A DNA stretch of 55,038 nt, the filler included, from Jimgerdemannia flammicorona (lineage: Eukaryota), in NCBI GenBank assembly GCA_003990765.1. It is 3 parts of 3 records of this genome, joined end to end, with 100 filler letters (N's around TTAATTAATTAA, not from the genome) between each part and the next. Parts side by side here need not be neighbours in the genome. Positions count along the whole stretch, not along the records: positions 36,774 to 55,038 come from RBNJ01002250.1; 2 more parts are not named here. One strand, given 5' to 3'. The translations under genes and the position numbers were made by a program. Positions 18,288-55,038 of this stretch are shown here, in pieces. Within the stretch, counting starts at the first letter, position 1. The number at the start of each line of letters is the position of its first letter. The notes under the pieces were generated by a model. That model ran no database searches, was not told the origin of the DNA, and saw only the letters and a list, made by a program, of their open reading frames with translations.

Positions 18288-18387
18288 NNNNNNNNNNNNN
18301 NNNNNNNNNNNNNNNNNNNNNNNNNNNNNNNTTAATTAATTAANNNNNNNNNNNNNNNNNNNNNNNNNNNNNNNNNNNNNNNNNNNN
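18288..18387. other. Artificial contig linker (N + TTAATTAATTAA)
   Basis: 100-base N run containing a six-frame stop motif. Confidence 0.95.
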
Positions 18388-20563: not shown

Positions 20564-23500
20564 ATGGCAAGTAAGGCTGATCCTCTTGGGTCTAAGAGGG
20601 ACCTATCGTGTATGAGATGTAGGGGAAAGAAGGCCAGGCAAGTCTTCTTTATTTAGAATCCACCTAATAGGGTCCCTCCGTGCCAAAGTTTGACGTGTGC
20701 GTGTAACGGATCCGCCACAGGGTTTAACTTCGTGGCTTTTGGTTTTTGCATACATTTTCAATCTACACAGGTGCTCAAGAACAAAGCCGAAATGTAGCCG
20801 ATGCGCACGCGGCAAACACGATGTACGTTTTGTGCCTACTGAGCGTGCTCTTGCGTACTTCTCTCACACACCGCCTCTTCCCCCACACACCGCTTCTTCT
20901 CCCACACACACGAAATTGTGAACTCAGCCCGCGCCAACCTCTCTTCCCACTTCGTTTCCCGGTCTTCACTCCCGCCCTGCCCTCTTACATACAGTGCATA
21001 TACCCTACCGTCGCCCCCTCTCTCGGCAAGCTTTCCAACCAAGTCACCACGCTCTTCGACGCCCTCGGTCGCCTGGAACACCGGCTCGCGGTGATTGGGG
21101 GCGACGAGCTCACACCTCGACCCGCCCTCGACCCGTGTGTCCCCATAGGTAACGACGATGGGGACAGCGATGTAGACGACGATGCGGACGGCAGTGGCGA
21201 CGACAGCCCAGACGACAGTAGTGTGACGATTAAGGTTGGTGGCGGCAAGAAGCGCGGCAAGGTGAACGAGACGTTGAAGCCACACGAAATTTTACAGACG
21301 ATCGCCGGGCTTCACTCGGTGCTGGAGCGGCTGGACGAGCGAACCAAGGTGCTGGTAGAGCGGCAGGTGGCGTCGGCAGCTGGGGAAAAGGCGAAGGCAC
21401 TGGCCGGGGACAAGATGCAGTTGGAGCGCGAGGAGGACAAGGACGAGGACGGGAACGGTCTGAACGAGTCGCAGCATCATCTCGCGACTAAGGGCGCGTT
21501 GATTGCGGACGGGAGCGCCCCGGCGCGATCCCGCGCAAAGCGTCAAAAGCATCAAGATCAGCCGGCGGAGGTCAATCCCATGCTCGCTATGGCGTTTGTC
21601 GCGCCCTCTCCACCACCCCCGCCAGCCTTGTGGACGATTGCTTCATCACCGGCTGGGATTACGATCCAGGCGAGCGTGCAGAACCTCAACGACCTGTCCG
21701 CGTTCCTGCAAGACTTTAAGAAACTAGGCGTGAATGACGAGGCCGAGGCGGACGAGAATGGCTCTTCGTCCTCGCCTTCGCCGATCCCTACGAAAAACCA
21801 CCTCCTCACCGATTCGGCGCATAACGCCAATCAGACCACTTTGCTTCCCACAGACAACACGACCGTTCTACACATCACACCGACCAAAGGTTTTGGCAAG
21901 GAAGCCATCATCGAATTCAATAAAGACGGCCCCAATCTAACGCCAGGGCACTCTCGTACTCCCAACGAACTTGCGACGCAAAGCGTCATAAAGGACGTAC
22001 TACACGCCTACTTCGAGTACCGGTGCTGCCACCAGCAGCGCACGGTCTTCCTGGAGCGCGACTCCTTCTACCGCGAACACTACGGGTCGGCCACTCTCCC
22101 GCCGGTCACAGACCCGTCCTCAACACCCTCGCTCCTGCTTATTTACTCCATGTGCGTCTTCTCCTGCAAGAAATTTTACCGACTGCACCCGCCAGCCACT
22201 AACCAGAATCGCCCGTGGTTTGCCAACCAGCAATTGGTCGTCGCGATGGAGGATTGGTTCTACGAGCAGTCGCGCACGCTCCTCGCCGAGTGCTTCGACA
22301 CCCCCTCCCTGGCCGTTATCCAGGCCCTGATCCACCTGCACTACTTCGAGTGCTTCCGCAAGAACCACAAAGTTGCCTATATGCTCATCGGTATGGCCAT
22401 CCGCATAGCCTTTGACCTCCGCCTCTTCCGCACCGAGGAAGCGGACGAGGCACCCGCACCCGCGCTGGCTTTCTCGCCAGTCTTTGCCGCGGCGACAGCG
22501 GCGGCGACGACGACGGTGACGATGGCGGCGACGACGACGGCGACAGTGGCGGCGATGGCGATGACGACGGCGACGGCGACGGCGACGGCGTGCGACAGCC
22601 CGCGCAGCCCGTACTCGGAAGATTCGTTGGACTCGTCGAGCACGTTGTCGAGTCTGAGTTCGATGACGCGCGCCAAGGAAGAGAGGCGTCTGACCACCTT
22701 CAAACTGCTCTTCCTCGACCTCTTCTCCGCTTTCCATGCCGGAGAACCCTCCGTTATCGACGACCGCGAGTGGGACCGCATTCCTCTGCACCGCAAGCGC
22801 ATCGAGCTCAGCATTACACACGAACCTTGCGAGGCTGACCCGGCAAGGCTCGCGTGCGTCCAACTGTTCCTTAACAACATGACACTCATGCGCGTACAGA
22901 AGCGCATCATGGCAAAGCTATACTCGCCCGAGGCGCAGGATCGCGCGGCAAGAGTGATGGCGGCTAAGACCGGGACTATCAGCACACCCTATGGCCCTGG
23001 CTCCCCCTTCCCGGACGACGAAGACGAGCATCTGGTAACGCGCACAGTGAACATGCTTCACGGAGAGTTGACGGAATGGTACCGTCAGTTACCAGATTAC
23101 TTTGTCTTCGACCCCCAAAACCCAGACGCAAACCCCACCTTCCCGCCTGCTGCCCTCCCAATGCATCCGCCACCCTACATTCCCCCCGCGGCACCGTCGG
23201 CCGCGCGCATGCGCACACTTTGCCGCCTTGTGCTGCACCAATTTTATCAACTGAACCGGATCTTTCTCTACCAGCTGTTCATCCCGACGTCGGCGGATGA
23301 CCAATCGGTCTCGTCCGTTGACTTCTTGGAGATGTGCCTGGACGCCGCACGTTCCATTACCCGACTGACGGAGATGTTGGTCGAGGAAGGGTCGTGCTTC
23401 ATCAACCTGCAGTCCGTCTTCTTCGCGGGTATGATCTATGTAAAGTACGCCAAGCTGTACATAGGTGACCCGGCGATTGTCGCTGAAGCAGAGAAGGGCC

Positions 23501-23655
23501 TGCTAAGGTGTGCCCAGGCACTCAGGGGGAGTCTGTCGTTCAGGTTCGAGCTTGATCTGTGCCAGGATTACGTAGTGCACATCGAGGAGTTCATTAGCGA
23601 ACTGAAGAAAGCTGTCGCCACACAGGCACAGGAACAGATGCCGGAGAACGCGTAG
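20564..23655 (+). CDS. Zn(II)2Cys6 fungal transcription factor with fungal-TF middle homology domain; exons 20564-20637, 20771-20822, 20995-23655
   Basis: Spliced N-terminus reads SCMRCRGKKARCSRTKPKCSRCARGKHDCIYP. The motifs SLAVIQALIHL...AYMLIGMAIRIAFDLRL and EERR...LFLD are typical of Fungal_trans. Confidence 0.9.
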
Positions 23656-36673: not shown

Positions 36674-36773
36674 NNNNNNNNNNNNNNNNNNNNNNNNNNN
36701 NNNNNNNNNNNNNNNNNTTAATTAATTAANNNNNNNNNNNNNNNNNNNNNNNNNNNNNNNNNNNNNNNNNNNN
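36674..36773. other. Artificial contig linker (N + TTAATTAATTAA)
   Basis: Identical in design to 18288-18387. Confidence 0.95.
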
Positions 36774-38240: not shown

Positions 38241-39202
38241 ATGCCTTCCTCCACTAATACCGAACAATCGAACGAGCCCGGACGTCAATCCTTCGCCGCC
38301 TTTACCCCTTCCCACCTCAAACATCTCAACTATCATCTCTCTAAACTCCCCCCCAAAAAAATTTTGGAATGGGCCATCCTCACTCTGCCGAATCTTTATC
38401 AGACAACCGCCTTCGGACTTACTGGTGAGCTTTATCTTCTTTTTTGAGCGCGTTTCAGACCAATTTTTTTTTGCAACATATTCTCACCAAAACGACATCT
38501 TTTACGAAATATTTATTAGGTTGCGTGATTGCTGACATGATCAGTAAAATCAGCATCGAACAAAACGATGGCAAACACCTCGTCCCGCTGATCTTCTTGG
38601 ATACATTCTACCACTTCCCCGAGACCCGAGACCTCGCCAACAAATTCGCCACGCACTACAACGTGCCGCTCAAGATTTACAAACCCTCCGGTCTCGCCAC
38701 CGTTGAAGATTTAGAGCGCGAGCACGGCCAGCGCCTCTGGGAGGTCAACGAGGACATGTACGATTTCCTCGTCAAGGTCGAGCCTGCGCGCCGCGCCTAT
38801 GCCGAGCTGGACGTCGCCGCCGTGATCACTGGTCGTCGTAGGAGCCAAAAGGGCGATCGCGCCGAAATCCCCATCGTCGAGGTCGATGGTACCGGCATGG
38901 TGAAGTTGAACCCGCTCGCATACTGGGACTTCCAGCAGGTTTGGACCTACATCAGGGCCAATAAAGTGCCCTACAACGCCCTCGTTGACCAGGGTTACAA
39001 ATCCATCGGCGATTGGCACTCCACCAAGGCGCCCGTCAACGGCGACGACGAGCGCAGCGGTCGCTGGGACGGCAAGGAGAAGACCGAGTGCGGCCTCCAC
39101 AAAGATTACTTCAAGATGCGGGCGGCTTTCATAGCCTCGAAAAAGAAGCAGCAACAACAGACCAAGCAAGGGAGCGGAGCCGACCTTGTCGCGGTGGAAT
39201 GA
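38241..39202 (+). CDS. MET16: Phosphoadenosine phosphosulfate (PAPS) reductase; intron 38425-38519; alternative start 38154
   Basis: LYQTTAFGLTG|C, IFLDT.YHFPET, KVEPARRAY, TGRRRSQ, GYKSIGDWHST, ERSGRW.GKEKTECGLH. Confidence 0.95.
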
Positions 39203-39355: not shown

Positions 39356-40515
39356 CATTACACGCACTTGTAAAATATAATCATAATAAAAATATTGTAG
39401 TATAATATTGTCTTCATTAGAAGTGTATTTTACAATCTAGTGTCAGATACCGATTAAAGACTCTAATCGACACCACAGGGTAATGGCAAAGTTCTCACAA
39501 GTCCTAATTTTGCCGAGCCAGTATTCCGGTTCGCCGTCGCCATATTGCTTGGGCGCTGTAAATGACGGAGACATGCCATAAAGATGACGGAAAGGATCGG
39601 GAACAATCCGCGGATACCATCACACGACCAAATAAAGTTTGAAGACGGCAAAAATAATAGTTATATTTAACAATATACTAAAATTAGATAATATTCACTT
39701 GCAAAAAAGATAACCAGCTGTAACATTATACCGGAAATAATATAAATATATAAATTATATAAACTTAAATATTATAAATATAAAAAAATAAATAAATATT
39801 ATTATAAAAATATATTATTTAATAATAATGAATAATATTATAATATAAAACTTATAATATTATTTTTAGAATATGTATTATTAAATTTTACTTACTTATA
39901 ACTTACATTATTTTATATAGATATTTTATATTTTATTATATTAATAATTATAACTATATTGTATAATCTTTAAGATAAAATTAAAAATATTGATAAATTT
40001 ATCTATTAATATAATTAGCCATAATATTTATAATAATATATTATATTATAATTTTTAAAAATGATAAAATAAAGATTTACTAAGTATATAATTTATATTT
40101 AAAAATTATAATAAAAATTAATAATAACTTTATAATACATATATATAGTAGATATATAATAGTAGAAGTATAGTAGATTTTTTATCTTAAATACTTAATC
40201 TTTTTGACTCTTCAGAGTCCTTGGGTACAGAGATATATAGATGAGTTTGAAGTATATCTGTCTGTAGACTTACTAGTTCTCTTGTCTCTTTGCTTTAAAC
40301 TATTTTGATCTAAGGTTTATTCACTCTAAATACTAAAGTATTTATATAAGTTTATTAGCTATATAGTAACTAAGTTAAAACTTCTTTTTCTGTGAGTTAT
40401 TTTGTATAATTGTGAGATCTATATATTTATATAATTTGTACATCTATATGATCTATATATATAATTGTGAGTTTCATATAGATATACTTTTTATATAATT
40501 ATATAAATCATATCT

Positions 40516-40772
40516 AGTGTGCTTAATAAATTAAATCAAAGGTCTGATTTAATTCAATTTGAACTCTATTTTGTGAAATATAATAACTTGACCAAAATAT
40601 ATTCAAATTTAATAATCTTTAGCTTATTAAATTTGAACATATTTTTATTAAGTTATTATATTTCAAAAAAATAAAGTTCAAATTAGACCCTTAATTTGAT
40701 TTAAATTTAATTCAATTTAAATAAGCCTGAATTTGATTTGATTCAAATTGATTTAATTTATTTAGAAATACT
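40516..40772. mobile_element. Short palindromic MITE
   Basis: Starts TAGTG and ends TACTA. Arms ~40555-40615 and ~40625-40685 are inverted copies, with TTGATTT/AATTCAA subterminal motifs. Confidence 0.6.
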
Positions 40773-41877
40773 ATATAGCTATGAGATTGAGTAATTATTA
40801 ACTATAATATTATATTATATTAGAAATTAGATTTAGATATTACAATTAAATAACTATCTCCTAATTATACTTTCTAATTTGGATCAATTATTATAACTTT
40901 CTTCTGAATAAGTAGTTTTATCTCTAAATTAATTTATTCAAATTTCTAAGCTTTTATTAGTTATATATTCTTATACTATTAATTTACTTAATTATATTCT
41001 TCTAATAATATCTTTTTATTTATCAAAAATCTTTTAAGACTACTTCTCAAAAATGAGTCAGAGCTTACTTATTATCTTTAAATAGTTTGTAGACCCACTT
41101 AGTAATAGTAATTTAGGAATAGAATATCTGATATTTAGTAATCTACTCTTCTTTAATTATTCTTTTTCTTATTTAGTAATTGTCTTAGCTTAAAGTAAAT
41201 CTGAAACTCAGTATAGTCTTAGTAGACTCTAAAGTTTAAAATATATAATAGGTAGATCTATATGATACTTTGAATATTATCATGAATTTCTCTATAGTTG
41301 ATAGCTCAGTAGAATATCATTATCTTTTTATAGCTCACTGAGTAGTACTAGTGATCTTAAGAGCTACAGTAATATCTTATTGACTAGCTATGTTATTTTT
41401 TGAGTTAATTTTAATAGATAGTAGTAGAGATGATTGTGTCTAATAGTTTTTATAGCTAAAAGATAGTTTTTTTTTTTATATTTTATATAAGATAAGATTC
41501 TTCTTACTTAGGCTTTAGTTTTTATAATTATGAAGCTTCTATCATATTCTGATATATCAGAACTTTATTATATATCTTAATAATCTTCAAAGGCTTGTAA
41601 ATCTTCTCTATATATTCTATTATAATATCTACATCTTGCTTATATAATCTTTAGTATTTTTCTTATTTAGTATAATTTCTATATCTTAGTATTTATTCAT
41701 TTTTATATTATAACTCTATTAGATAATAAGATTCCTTTAGAACTTTCTTCTCTAAATAGTAATTTTTAAGAGATAAAATGAGTGTTTTGTAATTATATAT
41801 ATTTTTAAGAGCAGATAATGCTATTAACAAATAGTGGTCTTAATTTTTATTATTATTGCAAATCTTAGTAATAATAT

Positions 41878-43086
41878 ATATATATATATATATATATTTT
41901 AACAGAGTTATAGTTCTGCAGATTTTTATTGGAAGGGAACCTAGACTATATAGGCCAAAACCCTCCCCTACTATCTACTGAACAATATCCCCTCATTAAT
42001 CTAGACTACTAAATTGTCCAGCAGTCCCACTGTCTAGCTATACCTGTCAAACACCGGCTATGTTGACCTCTATGATATAGACTAGACTTATCTACTCACT
42101 AGGACTGAATCATCATTTACATGCAAGAGCACACCTATATGTCAGATCTAGTAGCACCAGGACTGAATAAAGAATAGCCCCCCAAATCTCAAAAGAAAGC
42201 CTGAGGCAAAGAAAAGCCCCCCAACTAATCAACAGAGAGCAAAGAAGATTCAAAGTGAGTGAGTAAAGGACTTATATGCAGCACCTTTCTCAAAGAACTT
42301 ACACATGGGCTAAGGTCTGAAGAGACCCCACTCCTACTCTCTGAGTCTGCAGGCCTCGATCACCTTGCTATGTCAGCTCCCAGTTCTAGTTGAGTACTGC
42401 CAAATGAGAAAGGTCCCACTCCCCAAGCCTGTGGGCCTCAATTGTATTGCCATGTCAGCTCCCGGTTCCAGTTGGGTACAGCCAGAATACCAGCCCCTGC
42501 ACCACCCCACCCCCCATCAGCCAATCAAAAGATCTTACCAAAATATTGTCTACCCCAGCCCTGATAACTGCCCCCAGCCTGGTACCCCACTGGTCCACCA
42601 TAATCACCCTTTCTCCTATCTGTAACAGCTATCTCCCCTCTCATCCTGACATCACTGAAAAACAGTCACCTATGCCAGAACTGTACTCGCCGGGAGGCTC
42701 GCCAAAGCCAGAGGGCCCTACTATAGGCACCGAGAACCTGCAGATAACCTACACTGAGTACTTGATGCCCAAGGTCAGCCAACTCTCTATGTAGCCTGAG
42801 ATATACCAAGACAGTACCTTATTGGCAATGGCAAAAGGAAGAAGGTGCTGCACCAAAACAAATATACTCCAGATGCAGCCGAAGATACCAGAAACTATGA
42901 AAAAGTGGAGAAGACACTGATCTGATACTGATAAAGGGGCAACTCATCACCATTGCCCTCCTCCCACCATATCTATATAGGTACAGCAAACCAATCTGAG
43001 GTAGAGAGGGTAATAACAGGAGAAAGAGAACTTGAAAAATTGCCTACCAAATCTTATGACCAGTAAGGTAGTAGAGAAAGGAGCCC
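41878..43086 (-). mobile_element. Variant poly(A) retroposon copy with (TA)n tail and 14-bp TSD
   Basis: cttagtaataatat at 41864-41877 and 43087-43100. The 5' half is like the other copies; the 3' half is divergent. Confidence 0.85.
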
Positions 43087-43321
43087 CTTAGTAATAATAT
43101 TTATAAGAGTCTTATATCTGTTCATTTCCTTAGAGATGATGAGCTGTAATTCAAATATACTAAATTTTATACTTCTTGTAGAGAACCTCAAAGAGCTGAT
43201 TCACAAATTCTATTCCTTTGTCTATTGTTACTCACTTCAGTATCTTGAATTAGTAGATGATTTCTCTATAAAAGAAATTAGCAATTGACTATACTTTGAC
43301 TTCTTTAAGGAGTTCTGCTTT

Positions 43322-44483
43322 CATTTCTTTCTTTACTACCATACTAGTTATAAGGTTAGTAGGCAATTTTCTGAGTCTCCTTTCTTCTATTTTTATCCCC
43401 TCTATCTCAGATTGATTTATTGTTTCTGTAAGAGTATAGTGAGAGAGAGATAATAGTGATGAGTTATCTCTTTATTAGTATTAGATCAGTACTTTCTCTA
43501 TTTTTTTATAGTTTCTAGTACCTCTGATTATATCTGGAGTATATCTATTTTGGTATAATATCTTCTTTCTTTTGCTATTATCAATAAAGTATTATCTTAA
43601 TATATCATAGACTATATAGAGTATCAGCTGATCTTAGGCATTAAGTACTAGTATTGATTACCTACAGATGATAGGGCCTTCTGGACTTTGGTAAGCTTTT
43701 TAGTAAGTATGATACTAGTATAGATAACTGTTTTTCAGATAAAGTCAGGATGAGAGAAGAGATGACTATCATATATAGGAGAAAGGATAATTATGGTAAA
43801 CCAGTGAAGTGTCAGACTAGGGACAGTCATTGAGATTAGAGCAAATACTACATTAGTGGGGTCTTTTGATTAATATAGAGTGATTAGGTAATAGGTATCA
43901 CTCTTGGCTACTTTTGGCAATATATAGGATTAAGCACCAATTATTAGGAGTAGTTGGAGGGCCTGAGGCTTGTCTTGACTATACTCAACTAGAATTAGGA
44001 GCTGATATAATAATATGATCAAGGTCTATAGGCTTGAGTAGTAGAGTATTGGGGGTCTTCTCTTATCTCATATATAAGTCCTCTACTCATCTCATTGGAG
44101 AGAATCAGATCCTATCTACTATTCTATACTTTGAAGAGAGTTTTTCTTTATCTATTACTCTCTTTAGAGTAGTAGAGGCTATGTAAATTAGCTCAAATAT
44201 GGTCTTATATATATATTGGGATTTTGGGTATATGTCTTTAGTCATGAGTGTATGGTTGTTTATTTTCTGGTGATAGAAAGAGCATGGTATACAGAATGAG
44301 ATGTGGGCAACTTTACCCTACTGTACTTAGTATAGTTAAGCTGCTGAACAATAGCTAGCCTAGGTTTAATAGGGATGTAGTACTTGGTGAGTAGTGAGAG
44401 AGGCTTTTGGCCTATATAGTCTAGATTTCCTTTTAATAAAAATCTGTAAAACTTCAAGTCCATAAAACAAAAAAAAAAAAAAA
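43322..44483 (+). mobile_element. Full-length decayed poly(A) retroposon copy inserted in Gypsy integrase
   Basis: Colinear with 2438-3633; poly(A) 44469-44484; decayed TSD agttctgctt/aattctactt. Confidence 0.85.
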
Positions 44484-45499
44484 ATTCTACTTCTATCTAT
44501 TTTATAAAAAGATCTACAATAATAATAATATATTAGTTATCAGTCATTGTTTATTGTTATAGATAGAGAACTAGTTTTATCTATTATAATATATACAAAT
44601 AGTACTGATTTTATATCTGATAATTCTGATTTTATATCTGATAATTCTGGTATCTGGTTTTATTAATCTTACTTCTACTTTTGATATTTGTTACAGATCT
44701 TAATATATCATCTGATATCTTTCTCTATTCCTGATTACTATATTGTTCTTCTTACTTTGTTATAGGTATTTGTTCCTCTTAGATGACCAAGTTTATATAA
44801 TAATCTCATTACTTATTCCTTCTTGTACTCTGATATGACTAGTAGTTTTTTCTTTCTTTAGTATTTCTCTATCTATTTTGAATTATTTTTGGACTTTGTT
44901 GATAATTATTTATGTCTATTCTTTCAGATATTGAGGTATCTTTTGCTGTTTTAGATAGGTTATAATTCTATAGTAAAGCTTCTTATTTATATCTTTTTTA
45001 TTAATTATAAGTCCTTTATAATATCTGTGAGAGAATATCTATATTTGTATTAGTTCTTTCTGAGTGATACATAATGGTTGCATTATAGGCTTACAGCTTT
45101 ATAATCTATTTAATAAATATTATTTTGAGTTTACTTATAATTAATAACTAGGTGAGAGCTGAGTGATCTATCAGAATAGTGAAATATCTTTCTATAAGAT
45201 AATAGTAGATTTTTTCTATAATCTAGATAACTATAAGATACTCTAACTTGTAGGATTTATATTCTCTTTCTCTTCTACAAGTTTCTCAGCTGAGATATGT
45301 AATCATATACTCAATTTTATTCTTTTTTTTATACAAGAATAGCTCCTAGTCTAACTGAACTTATATCTATCTATAGAATGAACTCTTGAGATCAATTAAG
45401 TCTTCTCAAGATATATAGGTACTTGGATCAATCAGATCTTGAGATATTTAAAAACTTGCTATTATCTACTAGTCTATTTATATTAAAATATCTTAATTA

Positions 45500-46440
45500 T
45501 AGCAACTCAATATATAGTAGTATAGCTTAATTATATCATTCTGTAAATATTATCAGTATATATAAAAACATATAAACTAGTATTAATAAATAATTTGCTT
45601 CTTTCTCTCTATTTTATAATAAAAGGTTATGAGTCTTAATTAGTAGATATATTTCTCTAATATATATACTATACTATATTATATAATATTAACTAATATT
45701 AGTAGTAGAGATATATTAGTTCTAAGTAGTACAAGTGAAATATAATTCAGAATGAGTATTAGCAGTATAAGTATCTATTATAATAGTTATAACTATAATC
45801 ATTCTTGCAGCAGTAGCTATAATAATAGTAAAGAGGATGATACCATATAGATATACTATATAAAAAATCTCTTAAAAGAATATGGTTTGGAGAACTACTG
45901 GAAGCCACAGATATATATAACTGTTTAATCTCCAAATAAAGTCTAAAGAGAGTATCTGAAACTATGTCAATTGAGTCAATGAGCTAATGAATCAAGTGAA
46001 CTCTCTTATATCTATACTGATAGATACTATCAAAGATAAAGACAAGGTCTTAGTTCTTAAGTAAGGTCTTTTTAAGATATATAATATTATTGTTATCACT
46101 ATAAGAAAATCTGGTAGATTATTAGATTATAAGTATATAATTATGAGTCTTTTAAATGAGGAAACAAGACTGAGCAGTAATGGTAATAATATTAATAAGA
46201 ATGGCAATGAGAAAGCCTTCTAAAGAGTATATAGATAAGGTAAAGATAAGCTGAATAAAGAGTAAGATCAAAGTCAGTAATATGATAGTTAGAAATTTAA
46301 AGATAAATACTTCTGCTATAATAAGTATAGATATTATAACTATAAGAAGAAAGAAAAGAATAGCCAATAGTGTTGGAATTACAACTCAATATATCAATAT
46401 GTGACTTATACCATTCTATTAGATTTATATTATTTATCAG
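45500..46440 (+). mobile_element. Ty1/Copia relic (PBS-like site and gag fragment)
   Basis: GGTTATGAGTC at 45625 is Copia GGTTATGAGCCC-like. IKDKDKVLVLK*GL..YNIIVITI...LDYKYIIMSLLNEETR resembles UBN2-type gag. Confidence 0.6.
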
Positions 46441-46468
46441 TAATATATAAAATATATAATCTATACAA

Positions 46469-48002
46469 TGTAACAGTAACCCCAGAATGATGACATCAGC
46501 ACAGGAGACAGCCTTTCTTTACAAGCCACTAGATCGGAGTACAAGAAGATTATACAGTATATAAGATGAGCAATGATGACCAACTGTGAGTCATTGTGAC
46601 CACAGCACAAGCATTCCAAAGAATATAAAAGAAGGATCAAGAAACCGCAGTAGCAATAACCAAAACCACCAATCCCAAAATAGCTCAAAGACTTACCACA
46701 AACAAAATGCCTGCTGCTCACCAAACCTCAAGGTCAAGGAATCATCAAGATATCTCGGTCGAGGAAAGGATGTTCCAAGACATCAGAAGAGCCATGAGAA
46801 CCTGCTCAAGAAGGACTCCTAGTGTCAACCTGGGTACTGCAGACCCCTATCACTTTATTCTCTACTACTGCGAAATGGAAACAAGGATCACTATTGCCAC
46901 CGAATACCTCCAAATGTGGCAGAAATATGAAATAGGAAACCTCCTCTGCTGGGAGTTCCCACAGGCCAGCCCTCAAGAGCTACAAGATGCTACTCCCATG
47001 AACCTATGTGAGGCAAGAACAGTAAAGAAGATCTATCAGATCTTCAGGCATACACCATGGTTGATCCCCAACTTGGAGTATGTTAGAGTCTCAGACTTTA
47101 GAGACCTGTCATCCTGCCGTATCAATGCACTAGAAGCCAGGGTAGCCACAGAAGTCCAGTCCACCATCACCCTCAACAGTGAAGAAGTAGAAGACTTCTG
47201 GCACCCTATCCTTCAGAACAACCCAGACCAATTCCTGCAAGGATTGATCTCAGTATTCCAAGGCCCAAGCATCTGGGTTAGATCTCCCCAAGACCCCACA
47301 TTTGTCCCCTATTTTGTGGAAGAGAACCTCATAGACTGAATAGCTCCAGATCTTGTTCCTGATTTCCCTGCCGAACGTGATGACATCATCGATGACATCA
47401 TCCGGCGTGACATACCCGAAGCACGCGAAGTACACGAAATGCATAATAATGAAGTATGCGAGATGCGTGGCCTGCACGACGAATTTGCAGACCTCATCTC
47501 CTTCAGTGATGATGATGATGAAGCTCCCATGGTCCTGAACTTTCTGCTCTAAGTTCTTTGTTACACTGGATAATGCCAGCACCGGTATTCTCATGTAACA
47601 CTGGATAATGCCAGCACTGGTATTCTGAGATGATGCAAAATTGTTCCAGCACTGGCATTTTGATGTGATACTAAATAATGTCAGCCCTGGAACTTAGTAG
47701 TTTTAGTTATTGAAATTTATATTTAGCTTTATATCTTAGCAACCATTGAATTATATTTTGTATAAATACCTCTCTTATTTTCTCTGAAATAAAGTCAGTC
47801 AAGTTCCGGTTTCACTTACACACACTTTCTTGCAAGTAATCTAAGAGATAACAAGACAGTTAAAGATAAGAAGTTTGAGGACTATAAGACCTAGGGAAGG
47901 CACTCCAATAAGAACTTACTTATAACAACTTGAGTTAGTCTAAGAGATACACCTTGAAGAGAATCTGGCATATTTGAAGGACTCAGTGACCACTATGTGA
48001 CA
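46469..48002 (+). repeat. 5' LTR of family 2 (1534 bp)
   Basis: TGTAACA...TGTGACA ends; TATAAATA at 47761; AATAAA near 47788; direct repeat of 53707 onward. Confidence 0.9.
46707..47552 (+). pseudogene. LTR-encoded ORF3 (281 codons; one TGG>TGA stop at 47337)
   Basis: The frame continues past the stop to ...EAPMVLNFLL*. The other LTR has TGG at that codon. Confidence 0.8.
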
Positions 48003-48022: not shown

Positions 48023-48123
48023 TGATTCAAGACAAATCCCTTACTTTCAAGCTGAAAAATGAACAACTCCCACAACAACTACCCTGACTACAAGAGTCAC
48101 TCCCTGCAAGAATTCAAGACAAG

Positions 48124-51100
48124 ATGGAAATGCATCCCTCTACATTCTATAGATATACTACTGAAGAGTCAATCCTGACCTTCATTGAAGACTTTGAACA
48201 ATTTGCCACTGTATGAGCCCTTGGTGTGGATGCTCAATTGGCCCTTCTACTAGTTAGCCTCAGAGGACCTGCCAGAGATAAGTTCAATGCAGCCACCATT
48301 GCTGATGCTGGTGCAGCCAAACTTACCAACATGAAGGCCTTCCTCAGAACAACATATTATACTGAAGAGATCAATCAAGCTCTCAAGGATCAACTCAATA
48401 CTATCTGCCAGGGACTTAGTGAAGATCCCAACTCATTCTATACCCAAATTTGCCACCAGATTGTCTTGGCTGGCTATGATGATTGTCTCAAGGAACAAAT
48501 TGCAGATTCAACCTTCCTCAAAGGAGTTTACCCTGAAATTGCCCTAGCAATCTAGTCTACCCTAGCTGCACTGACCCTTGATCAGAAAGTGGTCTTTGCA
48601 CAGAGATATTGGACTGCCAGACACCCTGCTGAACACTCAATGGAGAAAATAACTGACATCAAGATGGAGCCATCAAAGCCAACTAGTATCTTACCTACCA
48701 CAGTTGTAAACAGACAACCAATCCCACCTACCCCCAAGACAACCAAAGCTGACCCAGTGGAAGAACTTGCAAAGCAGTTCACCGAGATGACTGCACACCT
48801 TGGTGATGTTGTTAGAGAAGTCTGAAGCACCAACAGGAGACCAGTACAGAGATTTGCAGCTGCTACAGAAGAACATAATAATATCACATACTTCAGATGT
48901 GGAGAAGAAGGCCACTATGCAAAGAATTATATGACCAAAACAAGACGCAAAGCCCAACCAAGCAATGCTAGCAGAACTAGAGAACAAACCAATGCAGTAG
49001 TCATTGAGAAGATTGGTGACACTGATGATGAAGAGTATTATGAGGAGCTCGAATTCTACCCTGCTACTGAAGGTACCAGAACCCGGTCCAAGCCCTATGA
49101 CAAGAAGAGCAATAGCAAGCCAGTTGGAAGACCAAAAAAGACTCCAGCTGTCACTATTCAAAGTAAGACCCAACACAAGGAGATTGATTAAGATATGGAG
49201 TTAGACGAGGCTGCCCACCAAATTATCGAAGGTACTACTCTAGTCTTAGAAGAAAGCGAGAGCAAGAAGGAACAGAAGCTGTACAAGACCAAGATTCACC
49301 AGTATAATATCTACAAGAACCTCAAGGAACAGAAGGTCAATGTCACTTTTGGGCAGCTAGCTGAGGTCCCTGCCTTCAGATAGCAGTTGAGAGTAGGACT
49401 TGTAACTACTGTCAAGAATCAAGAGTATAAGATTGTAAAAGCTCACAATGTACAAGAAGAATCTGAGAACTCAGGTGAAGAATCCGAAGACCAGTGCAAG
49501 ACATCAGCCTATACCCCCTGCCAGATTGAAGACTGTATCTTTGATGCCATCATTGATACTAGTGCTGGAGGATGCCTCATAAGTAAGAAGGCAATTGACC
49601 GCCTAGGTTGGGATATTGAAGAGTCCACCAAAATGGTCTATGTTACAGCAGACAATACACAAGCTACCCCCCTTGGCAAAATCCGAGAAGTCCCCATCAA
49701 GATAGGAGGAGCTACCATCCCAGTAGACGTGATTATTACAAGTGCCACCAACTATGACATCCTCATTGGCAACCAATGACTTCATAAGGCCAAGGCCATT
49801 ATTGACCTCAATACCCAGAAGATGCAGATCAACTACAGAGGGAGAAAGGTACGAGTTTCTATCAATGTCCACAAAGGAGTCCTGCCAGACATGGAGAAAG
49901 GAGATGAAGAAGATACAGAGGTCTTCATGCACTCAGTGAACAAGAACAAGAACAAGACACCCAAGCTCACAGATGAGCAGTGGTATAACAAGATCATCGA
50001 TAGGTATGCCCCTCAAGGAAGATACCCCCATGGTACTAGAATGTACTGCTCCGAACACCTGAATGACTGCTGGTCCTGTATCAGCAAAGTCAGGAAAATC
50101 CACCAACAAAAATATGAGCAAGAAGCTGCTGAAGCAAAAAGGAAAGCTGAAGAAGATGACCAGCCCCCAGAGCTTCAAGCTGACAGTGATGATAAGGAGG
50201 AACAAGAACCAGACATCACTCTCAAGGTCAAGAAGTTTCACCCTGAAGCCAAGATCCCAGAATATAAGACTGAAGGAGCCATAGGAATGGATCTTGCCAG
50301 TATCCAAGATACTACCCTCGAACCACAGACCACCACCTTACTTGGCACTGGAATTGGAGTCAAGTTGCCAGAAAACCATGCTGGAATTATCAAGACCAGG
50401 AGCAGTCTGGCCAAAAGCAAAATCTCAGTTGAAGGAGGAATAATTGACCCTGATTACACTGGTGAGATTTTTCTCATAGTCAGAAATCACAACCACACCA
50501 CTCCCTTCGAAGTCAAGAAGTATGACAGGATTGGCCAGATGCTGATCCATGAAATCAAGAAGCCTAAGATCATAGAGACCACTGAACTTATTAAGACTAA
50601 GAGAGGAGAACAAGGCTTTGGATCTACTGGAAGAGGAGCCTATGCCGCCACCAAGATTACCAAACTTGAGCATAAGAAAAACAAGGACCAGAACAAGCAC
50701 ACATATACCATTGGAGAAAACTTTCCCTTGGAGGAACAACTTCTCAAGATTCTGTATCAGAATGAAGGAGTACTTGCTACAGACTTTAGGGATATCCACA
50801 ATCAAGAACCCAAGTACCACCATGAAGTTGACACTGATGATACCAAGCCTATCTACCAGAAAGCCAGACCCATACCACCTGCCTACAGAGAGTGGCTGCG
50901 AGCCGAACTTAAGGAAATGGAAGAAGCTGGAATCATCAAGCAAGCTATCAGCCCCTGGGCCTCACCCATTGTCCTTGCCCCGAAGAAAGGAAGCAAGCCT
51001 GGAGAGTTCACACTAAGACTCTGCATTGACTACAGGAAACTCAATGCCATCACCAAGAAGGATAGGCAGCCCTTGCTGAATATTCAAGAAATCCTTACCA

Positions 51101-52152
51101 CCCTTGGAAGTGAAGCCAAATACTACACCACCTTGGATCTGTTCTCAGGCTTCCATCAGATCGGTCTCACTCAAGATGCCAGTGAGAAATCAGCCTTCAT
51201 CACACCTGATGCCACCTACATCTATCTGCAAATACCATTTGGAATGTACAATGCCTCAGCAAGTTTCCAGCAAATAATGAACAGAGTCTTCAGCAATGAG
51301 ATTGGAAAATAGCTCTTTATCTATGTTGATGATGTGATCATCTTCAGCAATACTGCACGGGAACATATCAATCATATACAGCTAGCCCTCAAGAGGCTCA
51401 AGGAGCATGGCCTCTACATCAAGCCCAAGAAATGCAAGTTTGCAGCTCAAGAAATCACCTACCTAGGATACCTCATCAACCAGACTGGAATCCACACAGA
51501 CCCCATGAAGATCAAGGCTGTTGTAGCCTATCCAAGATCCAGAACAACCACAGAAGTCCATGCCTTCCTTGGACTGGCCAGCTACTACAGAAGATTTATC
51601 AAAGGATACTCCAACATTGCAGTACCTATCTATGAGCTATTGAAGAAGGAGACCAAATTCGAATGGACCAAGGAGTGCCAAGAAATCTTCAATGAACTTA
51701 AGACCAGGTTGACCCAAGCACCCATCCTCAGAAGACCAGACTGGAACCTAGAATTCATCCTGCAGATAGACACAAGTGCTATAGGACTTGGAGCGGTCCT
51801 AGCTCAGAAGAAAGATGGACATGAATATGTCATCTCCTATGCAAGCCGAGGTACCTGCAGAGCAGAGCAGAACTACGAGTCATACAAGCTTGAATGCTTA
51901 GCAGTAGTTTGGGCAGTAGACAAATTCCACTACTACCTAGCTGGAAAACACTTCACCATTCAGACAGACCATTCCGCTCTTGCCTGGCTATTCCACACTC
52001 TGAACCCCAAAGGAATATATGTCAGATGGATCTACAGACTGCAAGAATATAACTGTACTATCAAGCACCGCCCAGGAAAGACCAACACCAATGCCAATGC
52101 ACTCTCAAGGACACCCCAAAACATCCCCATCAAGACTATTCAACATGAATAA
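48124..52152 (+). pseudogene. gag-pol single frame: gag, CCHC, protease, dUTPase, RT, RNase H (several in-frame stops)
   Basis: (C)FRCGEEGHYAKN(C), AIIDTSAGG, LCIDYRKLN, YVDD, ILQIDTS...TDHSAL...NANALSR. The ORF-track pieces from 48226 to 51334 share one frame. Confidence 0.92.
50218..50635 (+). CDS. dUTPase domain (intact motifs) between protease and RT
   Basis: GAIGMDL, TRSSLA, GGIIDPDYTGEI, DRIGQ, KRGEQGFGSTG. Confidence 0.95.
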
Positions 52153-53392
52153 GGAGCTATACTATGGATTAATTAGCTACCTTGGGCAGCGGAAGATGCC
52201 CAACCACCTTGAACCCTGGACAATCACTATCATCAACCAAACTTGGAAACAGTTTGAATTAGACAACACTACACTCAGAAAAGGAGGAAAGCTAGTAATA
52301 CTTGAACACAAGAAGTATCAAGTAATGAAGGAAGTACATGAGCAAGGACACTTAGGAGGAACTAACATATATGACAAGGCAAGAAGAACTATATAGTGGC
52401 TCAAGATAGAAGAAGACCTATGCCAATTTGTCAAAGGGTGTAACAAGTGCCAAAAACAGAAACAAGATCAGCAAGACCAGGCACCCGGATCATCAAGAAT
52501 CGAACCTATCCCCTTCCACCATATCGCAATGGATATCATTGGACCACTACCAGTAACACTATCAGGAAACCACTATATTATAGTTATTGTAGACCTCTTT
52601 ACCAAATGGATAGAGGCAGGAGTATTACAAGAAGTCAATGCCTTCTCTATAGCTGATTTTCTATACCGAGAAATCATCTGCTGCTACAAGACACCAAAGC
52701 AAATCACAATAGACCACGGCACAGAATTTGTCAATGGATTCCATGAGATAATATACCAGAAATACAAGATCCAGTACATCAAGACCACCACATACCACCC
52801 TCAAGGAAATGGACAGACAGAGAGAACCAACAAGACCCTCAAGAACATCCTAGCAAAGATCTTAGAGACATATGAGAATTGGGATAACTATCTCTCAACT
52901 GTCCTCTCTATTCTACGAGACACATGATCACAGAGCACACATTTTACCCCAAGAGAGCTGCTCTTTGGAGAAGAAGATTCTAATGGAACCTCAGTCATAA
53001 ATCTAGACCTAACTTGGAGACAGGTTGATGCAGAAATCCAGAGACTATACCAAATTAGGAAGAAGACTGAAGATTATATCACCAAGTCACAAGCACTGAT
53101 AAGGAAGAATGTGGAAAAGAATCACAAGGCCCTAGAACCCATCCGAATTGGAGAAAAGGTTCTACTGTATCGAAATATGGTAGAAGGCTCATGGTTACGA
53201 AAACTGGAGCCCAAATGGGAAGGACCCTTCTACATGCAAGATATCAAGGGAACTACCTTCTGGCATAGAAAAATCTCAGAGACCATACTGCCTACCATGG
53301 TACATAGGAACAGACTCAAGAAGTACCACGAACCTATACAAGAGAAGCAAAATGTGATGACTGCCCATGAGGTTCTAGTCCATGAATCGTAA
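52145..53392 (+). pseudogene. Integrase ORF of family 2 (separate frame, own ATG)
   Basis: MNKELYYG...HEQGHLG...C.KCQK, MDIIGPLP, DLFTKW, TIDHGTEF, YHPQGNGQTERTN, KLEPKWEGPF. Confidence 0.9.
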
Positions 53393-53696
53393 CAGCATGT
53401 CCTATGACCAGCAGGCTATCTGTCTGGACCATTCTCTAAGGGATACAGCACTAGCAATTACTCATCCATGAAGACTTTCACAGTCAGAGGAGTTCGAACC
53501 ATCAACTGATTGGTCAAGATCAGAATCAGGTCCTTGCTCTATATGAAGGAAGCGACTCTTCACCATTATGCCAAAATATAAAGAGAAGACACCAGCCCAT
53601 AAACACCAGTTTTTGACCCCTTGCCAGAGGTTATGGGATCAGCAAATTTTTCAGGACTAGACCAATGAATAAGGATGCTCAGGAAGATCCTTATTC

Positions 53697-53706
53697 AGGA
53701 GGAAGA
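53697..53706 (+). promoter_or_regulatory. Polypurine tract
   Basis: AGGAGGAAGA immediately precedes TGTAACA of the 3' LTR. Confidence 0.75.
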
Positions 53707-55038
53707 TGTAACAGTGACCCCAGAATGATAACATCAACACAGGAGATAGCCTTTCTTTACAAGCCACCAGATCGGAGTACAAGAAGATCATATGGCATAT
53801 GAGATGAGCAATGATGACCAACTGTAAGTCATTGTGACTACAGCACAAGTATTCCGAAGAATATAAAAGAAGGATCAAGAAACTGCAGTAGCAGCAACCA
53901 AAACCACCAATCCCAAAATAGCTCAAAGACTTACCACAAACAAAATGCCTGCTGCCTGCCAAACCTCAAGGTCAAGGAAGTATCAAGGTATCTCAGTCAA
54001 GGAAAAGATGTTCCAAGATATCAGAAGAGCTATGAGAACCCACTCAAGAAGGACTCCTAGTGTTAACCTGGGTACTGCAGACCCCTATCACTTTATTCTC
54101 TACTACCGTGAAATAGAAACAAGGATCACCATTGCCACCAAATGCCTCCAAATGTGGCAGAAATATGAAATAGGAAACCTCCTCTGCCAGGAGTTCCCAC
54201 AGGCCAGCCCTCAAGAGCTACAAGATGCCACTCCCATGGACCTACATGAGGCAAGGACAGCAAAGAAGATCCATCAGATCTTCAGGCATGCACCATAGTC
54301 AATCTCCAACTTGGAGTATGTTAGAGTCTCAGACTTCAGAGACCTGTCATCCTGCCATATCAATGCACTAGAAGTTAGGGTAGCTACAGAAGCCCAGTCT
54401 ACCATCACCCTCAACAGTGAAGAAGTAGAAGACTTCTGGCACCCTATCCTTCAGGACAACCCAGACCAATTCCTGCAAGGATTGATCTCAGTATTCCAAG
54501 GCCCAAGCATCCGGGTTAGATCTCTCCAAGACCTCACATTTGTCCCCTATTTTGTGGAAGAGAACCTCATAGACTGGAGAGCTCCAGATCTTGTCCCCAA
54601 TTTCCCTGCCGAACATGATGACATCATCGATGACATCATCCCATGTGACATACCCAAAGCACGCAAAGTATATGAAATGTGTGATAATGAAGTACGTGAG
54701 ACGCGCAGCCTGCATGACGAATTCGCAGACCTCATCTCCTTCAGTGATGATGATGATGAAGCTCCCATGGTCCTGAACTTTCTGCTCTAAGTTCTTTGTT
54801 ACACTGGATAATGCCAGCACCGGTATTCTCATGTAACACTGGATAATGCCAGCACTGGTATTCTGAGGTGATGCGAAATTGTTCCAGCATCAGCATTTTG
54901 ATGTGATACTAAATAATGCCAGCCCTGGAACTTAGTAGTTTTAGTTATTGGAATTTATATTTAGCTTTATATCTTAGCAACTATTGAATTATATTTTGTA
55001 TAAATACCTCTCTTATTTCCTCTGAAATAAAGTCAGTT
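53707..55038 (+). repeat. 3' LTR of family 2 (partial)
   Basis: Direct repeat of 46469-47800. Confidence 0.9.
53945..54790 (+). pseudogene. LTR-encoded ORF3, second copy (one TGG>TAG stop at 54296)
   Basis: Same 846-bp frame as 46707-47552, with its stop at a different codon. Confidence 0.8.

Follow-up and report, generated by a model that had tools for sequence, protein, structure and literature searches.

The three Ty3/Gypsy elements in a 55,038-nucleotide stretch of Jimgerdemannia flammicorona (Endogonales) DNA (hereafter the window, meaning the whole stretch that was analysed) encode integrase (IN) as a separate reading frame whose start overlaps the stop codon of the frame before it. 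In all three, the frame for gag, protease (PR), dUTPase, reverse transcriptase (RT) and RNase H (RH) stops 3–13 codons past an ADALSR motif, and integrase follows in another frame from an ATG (ATA in family 3) that overlaps the pol stop; an earlier note on this DNA had proposed this arrangement, and our reading of the sequence and of the frames agrees with it. Relative to pol, the integrase frame is +1 in families 2 and 3 and −1 in family 1, and in each family the pol stop and the integrase start lie within 8 nt, the overlaps being AUGA or AUGAAUAA. The window elements fall within a deep clade of Ty3/Gypsy LTR retrotransposons from Mucoromycota-type fungi; in this group pol ends directly after RNase H and a second cistron encodes integrase. 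We place at about 50% the probability of the complete reading, namely that this split clade would make integrase from the second cistron by termination–reinitiation. It is very probable that the split layout is ancestral and selected.

The family 2 element lies on the plus strand and its coding region is flanked by long terminal direct repeats, 7,238 nt apart and 92–95% identical (46468–46767/53706–54005, 92% identity, and 47559–47695/54797–54933, 95%, 73–74%, with a spacing of 7,238 in both pairs). The 5′ LTR extends approximately over 46468–47695, with bounds given by the repeat families D1 and D2, and the 3′ LTR, on direct-repeat evidence, approximately over 53706–54933. Between them, gag, PR, dUTPase, RT and RNase H share a single frame (48124–52152, with a start at 48088 or 48124) that ends at a natural TAA stop at 52150–52152 and is interrupted by seven premature in-frame stops (48214, 48553, 48823, 49189, 49381, 49777 and 51310). 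Pfam searches of this frame identified Asp_protease_2, dUTPase (PF00692, E = 1.2e-29), RVT_1 and RT_RNaseH_2 (E = 1.4e-34), as well as a weak match to the zf-CCHC zinc knuckle (17 bits, E = 0.0064, under the cut-off of 20.8); a precomputed domain list gives the gag zinc knuckle (PF00098) as present in the relatives P0014 and P0015. The domains follow one another on one strand in the order Asp protease, dUTPase, RVT_1, RT_RNaseH_2, Integrase_H2C2 and rve. P0014, an intact relative, aligned to family 2 in frame 1 at 48142–49926 and 50215–52149, its very last residue aligning at 52149, in the last pol codon of the element.

At the junction, CATGAATAA (52144–52152), the ATG occupies 52145–52147 and the pol TAA 52150–52152, which places integrase in the +1 frame. 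The earlier note had read this site as CAT GAA TAA with an overlapped ATG, and both the sequence and the alignment of a stand-alone integrase, P0125, whose residue 1 falls at 52145, bear this out. The integrase ORF (52145–53392, 415 codons) comprises an N-terminal extension domain, an HHCC region, a DDE core and a C-terminal domain. It is interrupted by a TAG at 52394 and a TGA at 52925, bringing the premature stops in family 2 to nine. The protein is 86% identical to the intact integrase P0122, matches rve (E = 1.4e-08) and, weakly, Integrase_H2C2 in Pfam, and has a predicted structure (pLDDT 81.7) whose top fold matches are the PFV and Ty3 integrases (E about 1e-17). Exactly one frame change is found across the approximately 5.2 kb of family 2 coding sequence, and it is located at the RH/IN boundary.

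The family 3 element, on the minus strand, has a homologous junction, TATAAATAA (44983–44991), which is related to CATGAATAA via C>T and G>A changes. Its pol stop is the TAA at 44985–44983, and the integrase start codon has become ATA (44990–44988), reading ATA AAT AAG from 44990. The claim that family 3 preserves the same phase in decayed form, as TAT AAA TAA, held up: the DNA alignment of families 2 and 3 is gap-free around the junction, family 3 pol, read by eye, stays collinear with that of family 2, free of indels, from FTI..DHSAL as far as the terminal stop, and residues 1–66 of P0125 aligned at 44990–44799 with residue 1 at 44990. This match is in frame −2, and P0125 also matched at 44845–44543 and 43330–43118 in frame −3. 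The integrase remnants (43118–44990) are strongly AT-enriched, with a frame change inside integrase, and the GC fraction of the family 3 region at 44001–46000 is 0.26. No dUTPase domain was found in family 3 in the Pfam search of the window.

In family 1, also on the minus strand, the RT–RNase H frame (11111–12463) has approximately 450 codons (12463–11114) and ends in ...NVDMLSYQPQ before a TGA at 11113–11111. Residues 1032–1489 of P0014 align to it in one frame, short-tailed relatives such as P0017 match family 1 pol up to 3 or fewer residues from their own ends, and a dUTPase domain (PF00692, E = 1.2e-13) lies at 13057–13455. The ATGA overlap that had been reported at 11114–11111 is present (CAA TGA, with the ATG at 11114–11112), integrase is in the −1 frame, and the HHCC region of the integrase remnants (9643–11114) is in the frame of that ATG. 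However, this copy lacks approximately 40 N-terminal residues compared with the clade integrases: homology picks up at clade residue about 63–70, only 22–29 codons past the ATG, and only the first five residues (MNQKM) look like the consensus MNxE[LV]. Because these residues are absent, family 1 is weaker evidence for the split layout, and its ATGA could in principle be the product of a deletion.

All three window copies are dead, with stops made by transitions, and it is only in them that the overlap is seen as DNA; in intact relatives it is deduced from the ends of proteins. Gag-pol ORFs of 1,263–1,507 amino acids in the databases terminate at the site homologous to the pol stop of the window. 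Five relatives (P0012, P0014, P0015, P0016 and P0020; 584–1,507 amino acids, 48–53% identical in RT–RH) are without an integrase Pfam domain and end 13–22 residues beyond ADALSR, and over the clade the gag-to-RNase H ORF ends 2–22 codons beyond this motif, with no gag/pol frameshift. Four gag-pol proteins of one 90% cluster, that of P0014, were obtained from ENA (two), Logan and JGI and are encoded on contigs of 5.8–7.8 kb; all four end in ...KYNHE, comparable to ...TIQHE* in the window.

The other half of the arrangement is found in stand-alone integrases. A search for these proteins returned 51 matches, of which 35 were examined; they are 38–86% identical and mostly 394–447 amino acids long. 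A methionine stands at one aligned column (M[N/D/E]xELYYGL) in 35 of 35, which is partly by construction in proteins with no upstream extension, because gene callers start ORFs at ATG. Five proteins that do extend upstream (P0122, P0124, P0131, P0443 and P0444) still have the methionine at the aligned start column, where it is the first residue of the N-terminal extension domain of the clade integrases. P0122, the closest of these to the window (433 amino acids), is an intact stand-alone ORF, and its cluster mate P0442 (415 amino acids) starts with MNKELYY. The HHCC and D,D35E residues are kept: in a 37-row alignment, M1, H69, C99, C102, D130, D190 and E226 are invariant and H65 is nearly so. 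When the search was run with no length filter, 12 matches (233–576 amino acids) reached query residue 8 or lower, and 11 of these start within 8 residues of their own N terminus; all ten matches with at least 40% identity are at most 448 amino acids long, and the best protein of more than 700 amino acids is only 36% identical. There is a hint that a gag-pol protein (P0461) and an integrase (P0140) lie on one contig, as each comes from a contig of length 7754 from the same source. The pattern is more than chance, because in intact relatives pol stops and integrase begins at matching positions. We also looked for a continuous RH–IN frame in young or consensus copies, the observation that would have counted against the earlier note, and found instead intact stand-alone integrases and gag-pol proteins with homologous ends.

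Phylogenetic placement identifies the separate integrase as a clade trait. In an RT–RNase H tree (FastTree, 115 rows, with 6 of 120 matches left out for incomplete alignment), 34 sequences form the clade with an SH-like support of 96. None of the 34 has a fused integrase, 24 being short-tailed and 10 carrying another C-terminal extension, whereas integrase is fused in 64 of the 81 rows outside it. The earlier note had described the junction as a real design and not decay, a view that this tree and the layout of the intact relatives support. Contigs from metagenomes, viruses and prokaryote genomes yielded 101 loci, none of which falls in the split clade (RT–RH at most 48% identical, integrase N terminus unmatched), and these non-clade loci were used as an outgroup control. 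Among 96 unrelated Gypsy loci with an RT–RH match, integrase was fused in 45 and split in 25; the breaks in the latter are scattered, and no start overlapping a stop was found in any of the 25.

Other copies of family 2 were examined in soil-metagenome contigs from four runs. Contigs of two runs, from different studies, bridge the family 2 junction gap-free, and no supported indel was found at 52100–52160 in these copies. The stops that the window has at 49189, 49779 and 52927 are read otherwise in nearly all of the contig depth in all four runs; the internal stops of the window are copy-specific. Decay is almost purely transitional, with a Ts/Tv ratio of 10–18.

How, then, could integrase be made? 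Ribosomes would finish the gag-pol ORF of approximately 1,500 codons on the full-length RNA, and a fraction of the terminating ribosomes would reinitiate at the integrase AUG by coupled termination–reinitiation. The product would be a free, unfused integrase in sub-stoichiometric amounts, which would have to enter the particle or bind the cDNA through non-covalent contacts. Among the mechanisms considered, termination–reinitiation seems the most likely, because the stop and start overlap, the AUG is invariant and integrase can be in either the +1 or the −1 frame. The UGGGA core of the upstream motif in viral termination–reinitiation signals (TURBS) is complementary to 18S rRNA. In the three families, whose copies are transition-mutated, none of TGGGA, TGGG and GGGA occurs in the 153 nt before the stop. 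Folds of the junction were not better than those of shuffled sequences (z = −1.7 to +1.1, for single, decayed sequences); an Rfam search returned nothing at gathering score across the whole window and, around the junction, only a chance-level match to a lncRNA (E = 0.73). With respect to spacing, the pol stop and integrase AUG are out of frame and within approximately 20 nt, as in TURBS-type signals (PMC10275272). An ORF of 4.5 kb makes reinitiation demanding, and a helper element was not identified.

The alternative that survives best, although we consider it unlikely, is that integrase has an mRNA of its own, arising subgenomically from a promoter inside the RNase H region or by splicing, and that the overlap reflects only compaction of coding sequence. 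A separate mRNA would account for the conservation of the AUG and for integrase lying in either frame as well as reinitiation does. Many stand-alone integrase ORFs were found on contigs of 1.7–2.7 kb, and P0131 is open to the 5′ end of its contig with only 12 codons upstream of the methionine, but the sizes of integrase contigs say little because short contigs are normal in metagenomes. Nor does a separate mRNA give a reason for an AUG at most 8 nt from the stop in three divergent families. In favour of splicing, an AG that follows a C-rich tract lies, by eye, 11 nt ahead of the family 2 ATG, although an intron of approximately 4 kb would be unusual for fungi. This AG was rejected as a splice acceptor, as families 1 and 3 do not share it.

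Programmed frameshifting at or near the pol stop would instead produce a Gag-Pol-IN fusion in which the methionine is an ordinary internal residue. Packaging would then be solved, and a +1 shift on GAA UAA G in family 2 enters the integrase frame directly, +1 shifts at stop codons being known from antizyme and RF2. We nevertheless regard this as improbable. The direction of the shift would have to differ, being +1 for families 2 and 3 and −1 for family 1, and no in-frame slippery heptamer was found near the junction in the three families (frame checked by eye). CCCAAAA, 38 nt upstream in family 2, is out of phase and a −1 shift there misses the integrase frame; the mutated family 3 copy has AAAAAAG 17 nt upstream, yet integrase is +1 there as well; and family 1 has no XXXYYYZ string. 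Moreover, the methionine is invariant in 37 of 37 aligned integrases, including those extended upstream, and a fusion needs none.

There is a similarly slim chance that ribosomes reach the integrase AUG on the full-length RNA by internal entry or another termination-independent route. Such a route fits a conserved AUG in either frame, and in family 2 the preceding 123 nt are rich in A and C and fold weakly (−8 kcal/mol, z = +1.1), but neither a structure nor an Rfam element was found at the junction and the closeness of the AUG to the stop codon is left unexplained. Chance decay, in which three dead copies happened to acquire independent indels at the RH/IN boundary, has almost no probability left: family 2 does have its nine premature stops, more are present in families 1 and 3, and in family 3 the frame changes again within integrase, but the break is common to intact relatives, the mutations are nearly all transitions, there is no second frame change in the 5.2 kb of family 2, and the split layout tracks a clade.

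In textbook accounts, integrase gets into the capsid as a covalent part of Gag-Pol. This link is broken in a clade that is old, diverse and evidently successful, which raises the questions of how integrase is dosed and how it finds the cDNA. With gag to RNase H in one ORF and only integrase regulated, the limited protein can be integrase and not the whole of Pol. If termination–reinitiation is correct, LTR retrotransposons would join the few eukaryotic systems in which reinitiation follows a very long ORF, here apparently with no calicivirus-type motif, and the junction would offer a compact natural signal for study in fungi. More tentatively than the complete reading, we suggest that this could be the first LTR retroelement lineage with a free, trans-acting integrase, made by reinitiation and recruited to the particle or cDNA via its N-terminal extension domain. 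In that case, integrase could be a good shared with sibling and non-autonomous elements, and its dose would be set by the efficiency of reinitiation and not by a gag/pol frameshift. Annotation pipelines built around a fused Pol will score elements of this clade as broken, so active copies in Mucoromycota genomes may be under-counted.

In the usual Ty3/Gypsy organization, integrase forms the C-terminal portion of the Pol polyprotein, from which protease releases it. The clade departs from this arrangement, with integrase in a separate ORF and a different frame and 0 of 34 members fused. It resembles fungal Ty3/Gypsy elements in its LTRs, its gag with a putative zinc knuckle (weak in the window copy), the order PR-(dUTPase)-RT-RH-IN and a four-domain integrase, and the dUTPase matches of families 1 and 2 (PF00692) lie between PR and RT, as in dUTPase-bearing Gypsy elements. 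Fungal examples of the latter (PMC2864245) are PosPlaTy3 of Postia placenta and elements of Phanerochaete chrysosporium and Tuber melanosporum. In contrast to the fungal elements, gag to RNase H here forms one ORF and integrase alone is split off, with a conserved start overlapping the stop. The full-text literature searched, a scope that leaves aside subscription journals, Repbase notes and the additional tables of PMC2864245, held no precedent for an LTR retrotransposon whose integrase is separately encoded or made by reinitiation; the passages retrieved from the papers on PwRn1 (PMC2582038) and Tat (PMC13468544) are about gag/pol and an extra RNase H, not integrase.

Among retrotransposons, the LINE SART1 is described as using reinitiation between ORF1 and ORF2 (PMC10275272). 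It too obtains a second protein from one RNA, as is proposed here by reinitiation, but it is a non-LTR element and its split separates an RNA-binding ORF1 from the complete enzymatic ORF2, whereas the split described here separates RNase H from integrase. Foamy viruses express Pol apart from Gag on a spliced mRNA. There, as here, an unfused retroelement enzyme must reach the capsid non-covalently, and PFV integrase is the best structural match; however, the whole of Pol, integrase included, is separate from Gag in foamy viruses, whereas here integrase alone is separate and a spliced RNA is not known. Ty1 and Ty3 (+1) and retroviruses (−1) shift frame at gag/pol (or pro) sites, which yields fusion proteins and needs no AUG. 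The likeness is a frame change inside the coding region of a retroelement, which in those systems sets protein ratios; the differences are that the site here is RH/IN, with an invariant methionine and with integrase in the +1 frame in some families and the −1 frame in another.

Viral termination–reinitiation signals are described as having the stop and start within 20 nt (PMC10275272). The junctions are similar to the TURBS of caliciviruses and influenza B (UAAUG or AUGA), as outlined in the same source, in that an out-of-frame stop and start share or nearly share nucleotides, here as AUGA or AUGAAUAA. They also follow a long upstream ORF, with the downstream product expected in lower amount. 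Unlike those systems, they have no UGGGA within 153 nt and no structure was detected there, and they belong to a retrotransposon of a fungal host. Victoriviruses stop and restart at AUGA between CP and RdRp, and need an upstream pseudoknot. The hypovirus CHV1 stops and restarts at UAAUG between ORF A and ORF B (PMC2699510). These are RNA viruses with no integrase, and a victorivirus-type pseudoknot is not evident here, but they share with the split clade a fungal host, a penta- or tetranucleotide overlap and an unfused replication enzyme that is, or here would be, below the structural protein in amount.

[quoted passage not shown] The family 2 element is complete, and its long terminal repeats (LTRs; 46468-47695 and 53706-54933, plus strand, by direct-repeat comparison) are spaced 7238 nt apart and are 92-95% identical. 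Between them, Pfam matches to gag (with a weak CCHC), aspartic protease, dUTPase, reverse transcriptase (RT) and RNase H lie in a single plus-strand frame, which runs from approximately 48124 to a TAA at 52150-52152 and is broken only by in-frame stops. Integrase lies on the same strand in the +1 frame relative to pol and extends from an ATG at 52145, overlapping the end of pol as claimed, to 53392 (415 codons, with two in-frame stops). The 5.2 kb of family 2 coding sequence therefore contains one frame change, at the nine-base RNase H-integrase junction CATGAATAA. This junction is the element's only translational control point. The domains from gag to RNase H form one continuous ORF in family 2 (48124-52152) and in its database relatives P0014 and P0015, and a gag/pol frameshift or stop is absent from the gag-pol ORF of all three. 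The family 2 LTR, roughly 1.3 kb, also harbours a long ORF with no Pfam match, which spans 236 codons in the 5′ LTR (46629-47336, plus strand) and reappears in that frame, interrupted by a single stop, in the 3′ LTR (53867-54295 and 54299-54787, plus strand).

The family 3 junction, TATAAATAA (44991-44983, minus strand), aligns to that of family 2 without gaps and bears out the claim of the same phase in decayed form. Read by eye, its pol frame runs collinearly with that of family 2 and ends at the corresponding stop, integrase is again in the +1 frame, and the junctions differ by ATG to ATA and CAT to TAT, both transitions. In family 1, the RT-RNase H frame, assigned by protein alignment, remains open for approximately 450 codons to a TGA at 11113-11111 (minus strand), and an ATG at 11114 creates the expected ATGA stop/start overlap. 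The zinc-site region of integrase is in the frame of this ATG, but that frame is -1 rather than +1 relative to pol, and only MNQKM resembles the consensus start. Because integrase homology sets in roughly 40 residues sooner after the ATG than it should, the N terminus is shortened in this copy, and family 1 gives the weakest evidence among the three families. The approximately 40 residues missing from the family 1 integrase (9643-11114, minus strand) belong to the N-terminal extension domain found in all clade integrases; the window copy may have undergone an in-frame deletion, or its integrase may be a form that is naturally shorter.

The window copies of all three families are dead, so the question of decay turns on the layout of living relatives. 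The nearest database gag-pol proteins (P0012, P0014 and P0015) are uninterrupted ORFs of 1263-1507 amino acids. Together with two partial relatives (P0016 and P0020), they have the order gag, protease, dUTPase, RT and RNase H, end 13-22 residues past an ADALSR motif and contain no integrase domain. P0014 aligns to the window protein to the last codon (...KYNHE versus ...TIQHE). Its end is common to four members of the P0014 cluster (two from ENA, one each from JGI and Logan), whose contigs measure 5.8-7.8 kb, and is therefore not a contig edge.

A protein search with the window integrase, its stops read as X, matched 51 proteins, and we analysed 35 that were near full length, leaving out 16 fragments or distant matches. 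All 35 have an M[N/D/E]xELYYGL-like start at one aligned column. This shared start and the common end of the uninterrupted gag-pol relatives support design over decay. In a 37-row alignment with a mean identity of only 40%, the start methionine is invariant, as are H69, C99 and C102 (zinc) and D130, D190 and E226 (catalytic); H65, the remaining zinc ligand, is nearly so. Five proteins (P0122, P0124, P0131, P0443 and P0444) have called ORFs that start further upstream and yet retain this methionine, which is therefore not merely an ORF-calling artefact. Intact versions of the window integrase are P0122, at 86% identity, and P0442 from the same cluster (415 amino acids, beginning MNKELYY), and further stand-alone integrases at 29-34% identity likewise begin M[D/N/E]xxxY..L. 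At the second position, 25 of 36 proteins have N, 9 have D and 2 have E, with MNK, MNR and MDPE starts recurrent; a pol stop codon embedded in the other frame (such as GAA TAA G, GAA TAG A or CC TGA) could constrain this choice. In a structural model of integrase (pLDDT 81.7), whose best matches are the four-domain PFV and Ty3 integrases, residues 1-46 fold with confidence (pLDDT above 90) into an N-terminal module made up of two helices plus a hairpin, so the ORF is predicted to start exactly at a domain boundary.

A second search, free of any length cut-off, covered 1.84 billion representatives. Among the best 150 matches, no long polyprotein covered the first 16 query residues, all ten at 40% identity or more were at most 448 amino acids long, and long polyproteins reached at most 36%. 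Twelve of these matches (233-576 amino acids) aligned to query residue 8 or earlier, 11 of them beginning within 8 residues of their own N terminus. For the RT-RNase H region, a tree was built with FastTree from the window and 114 of the 120 best 'longer' matches, six having been dropped for incomplete alignment. It placed 34 rows in a clade (SH-like support 96) with no fused integrase: 24 stop 2-22 residues after ADALSR and ten carry a different, Cys/His-rich C-terminal extension. Outside the clade 64 of 81 rows are fused, a class label that is imperfect, as P0092, a 'short' protein there, is nearly identical to fused proteins and evidently cut by a contig end. The clade includes a Rhizophagus clarus protein, and Rhizopus delemar proteins lie directly beside it. 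Database proteins of a subclade sister to the split-integrase clade (P0027, P0041, P0046, P0050, P0057, P0074, P0080, P0082 and P0091) have a C-terminal extension of 200-350 residues after RNase H, in which a Cys/His-rich motif (...QPITRGGSKC...ENHH.H.YC..C.RNLPYGT...) is conserved and an integrase domain is absent. As a control, we took 96 unrelated Gypsy loci with an RT-RNase H match from metagenomes and MAGs. The RNase H-integrase frame was continuous in 45 and split in 25, at scattered places and mostly through in-frame stops, with no start overlapping a stop among these 25; the other 26 were uninformative (pol off the contig, 14; integrase not found, 7; RNase H end unaligned, 5).

Other copies of family 2 were compared over 48100-53500 using contigs from four sequencing runs (X1, X2, X3 and X6), three of them soil metagenomes and one labelled 'organism A', which yielded thousands of short contigs 80-99% like family 2. 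In each of the four runs, all or nearly all contig depth shows C at 49189 and G at 49779 and 52927, so the stops of the window at these three positions are private to the window copy. Contigs from two runs of different studies span the junction gap-free, and the best-supported rows contain no supported indel between 52100 and 52160; a single contig of low depth carries an insertion of 3+1 nt at 52165/52169. A continuous RNase H-integrase frame, the finding that the note had named as contrary to its proposal, thus did not turn up in the intact relatives, the 34-row clade or the best-supported rows for other family 2 copies. Differences among copies are overwhelmingly transitions (Ts/Tv 10-18), and parts of the window are extremely AT-rich, family 3 included (GC 0.20 at 40001-42000 and 0.26 at 44001-46000), which suggests deamination or a process resembling RIP in a genome of Endogonales type. 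The window is fungal, and its host genes include one for a Zn-cluster-type transcription factor (Fungal_trans by Pfam; 20728-23652, plus strand; a 975-codon ORF within an island of high GC, 0.56) and one for a PAPS reductase (Pfam; 38429-39199, plus strand) 96% identical to its counterpart in Jimgerdemannia flammicorona (Endogonales, Mucoromycotina). Two pairs of N runs, 44 each (18288-18331 and 18344-18387; 36674-36717 and 36730-36773), may be sequence that was masked or withheld, or gaps in the assembly.

In these elements, pol ends after RNase H and integrase starts at a conserved methionine in either alternative frame, with the two codons overlapping in the window. An invariant AUG combined with both +1 and -1 layouts fits independent initiation, and these sequence features suggest that integrase is initiated on its own. 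Among the initiation routes, a subgenomic or spliced mRNA encoding integrase is a serious rival; coupled termination-reinitiation, in which the overlapping stop and AUG would yield integrase, appears to be the best explanation for the position of the AUG at the stop codon. Counting against reinitiation, RNA folding and Rfam searches around the junction found nothing, and the viral UGGGA motif is absent from the window junctions. A programmed frameshift of fixed direction is argued against by the two layouts, the invariant AUG and the absence of an in-phase slippery heptamer at the junction. If integrase is initiated independently, we would guess that the free protein reaches the particle by contact through its N-terminal domain.

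The window's AUGA, and its AUG five bases before the stop, are overlap kinds described for caliciviruses, influenza B and fungal RNA viruses (PMC10275272; the CHV1 abstract, PMC2699510); according to PMC10275272, stop and start in viral stop/restart systems lie at most 20 nt apart and efficiency is 3-20%. Full-text searches turned up no LTR retroelement with such a layout, or with reinitiation; a description may exist in subscription journals, Repbase notes or supplementary tables. Fungal Gypsy elements bearing a dUTPase are already described (PMC2864245). The split integrase layout clearly merits the interest of specialists in retroelements and in translation. By their LTRs, domain order and integrase type, the elements are Ty3/Gypsy, and they differ from the usual organisation of that group, in which integrase is part of the polyprotein, in the one respect tested: their integrase lies outside it.
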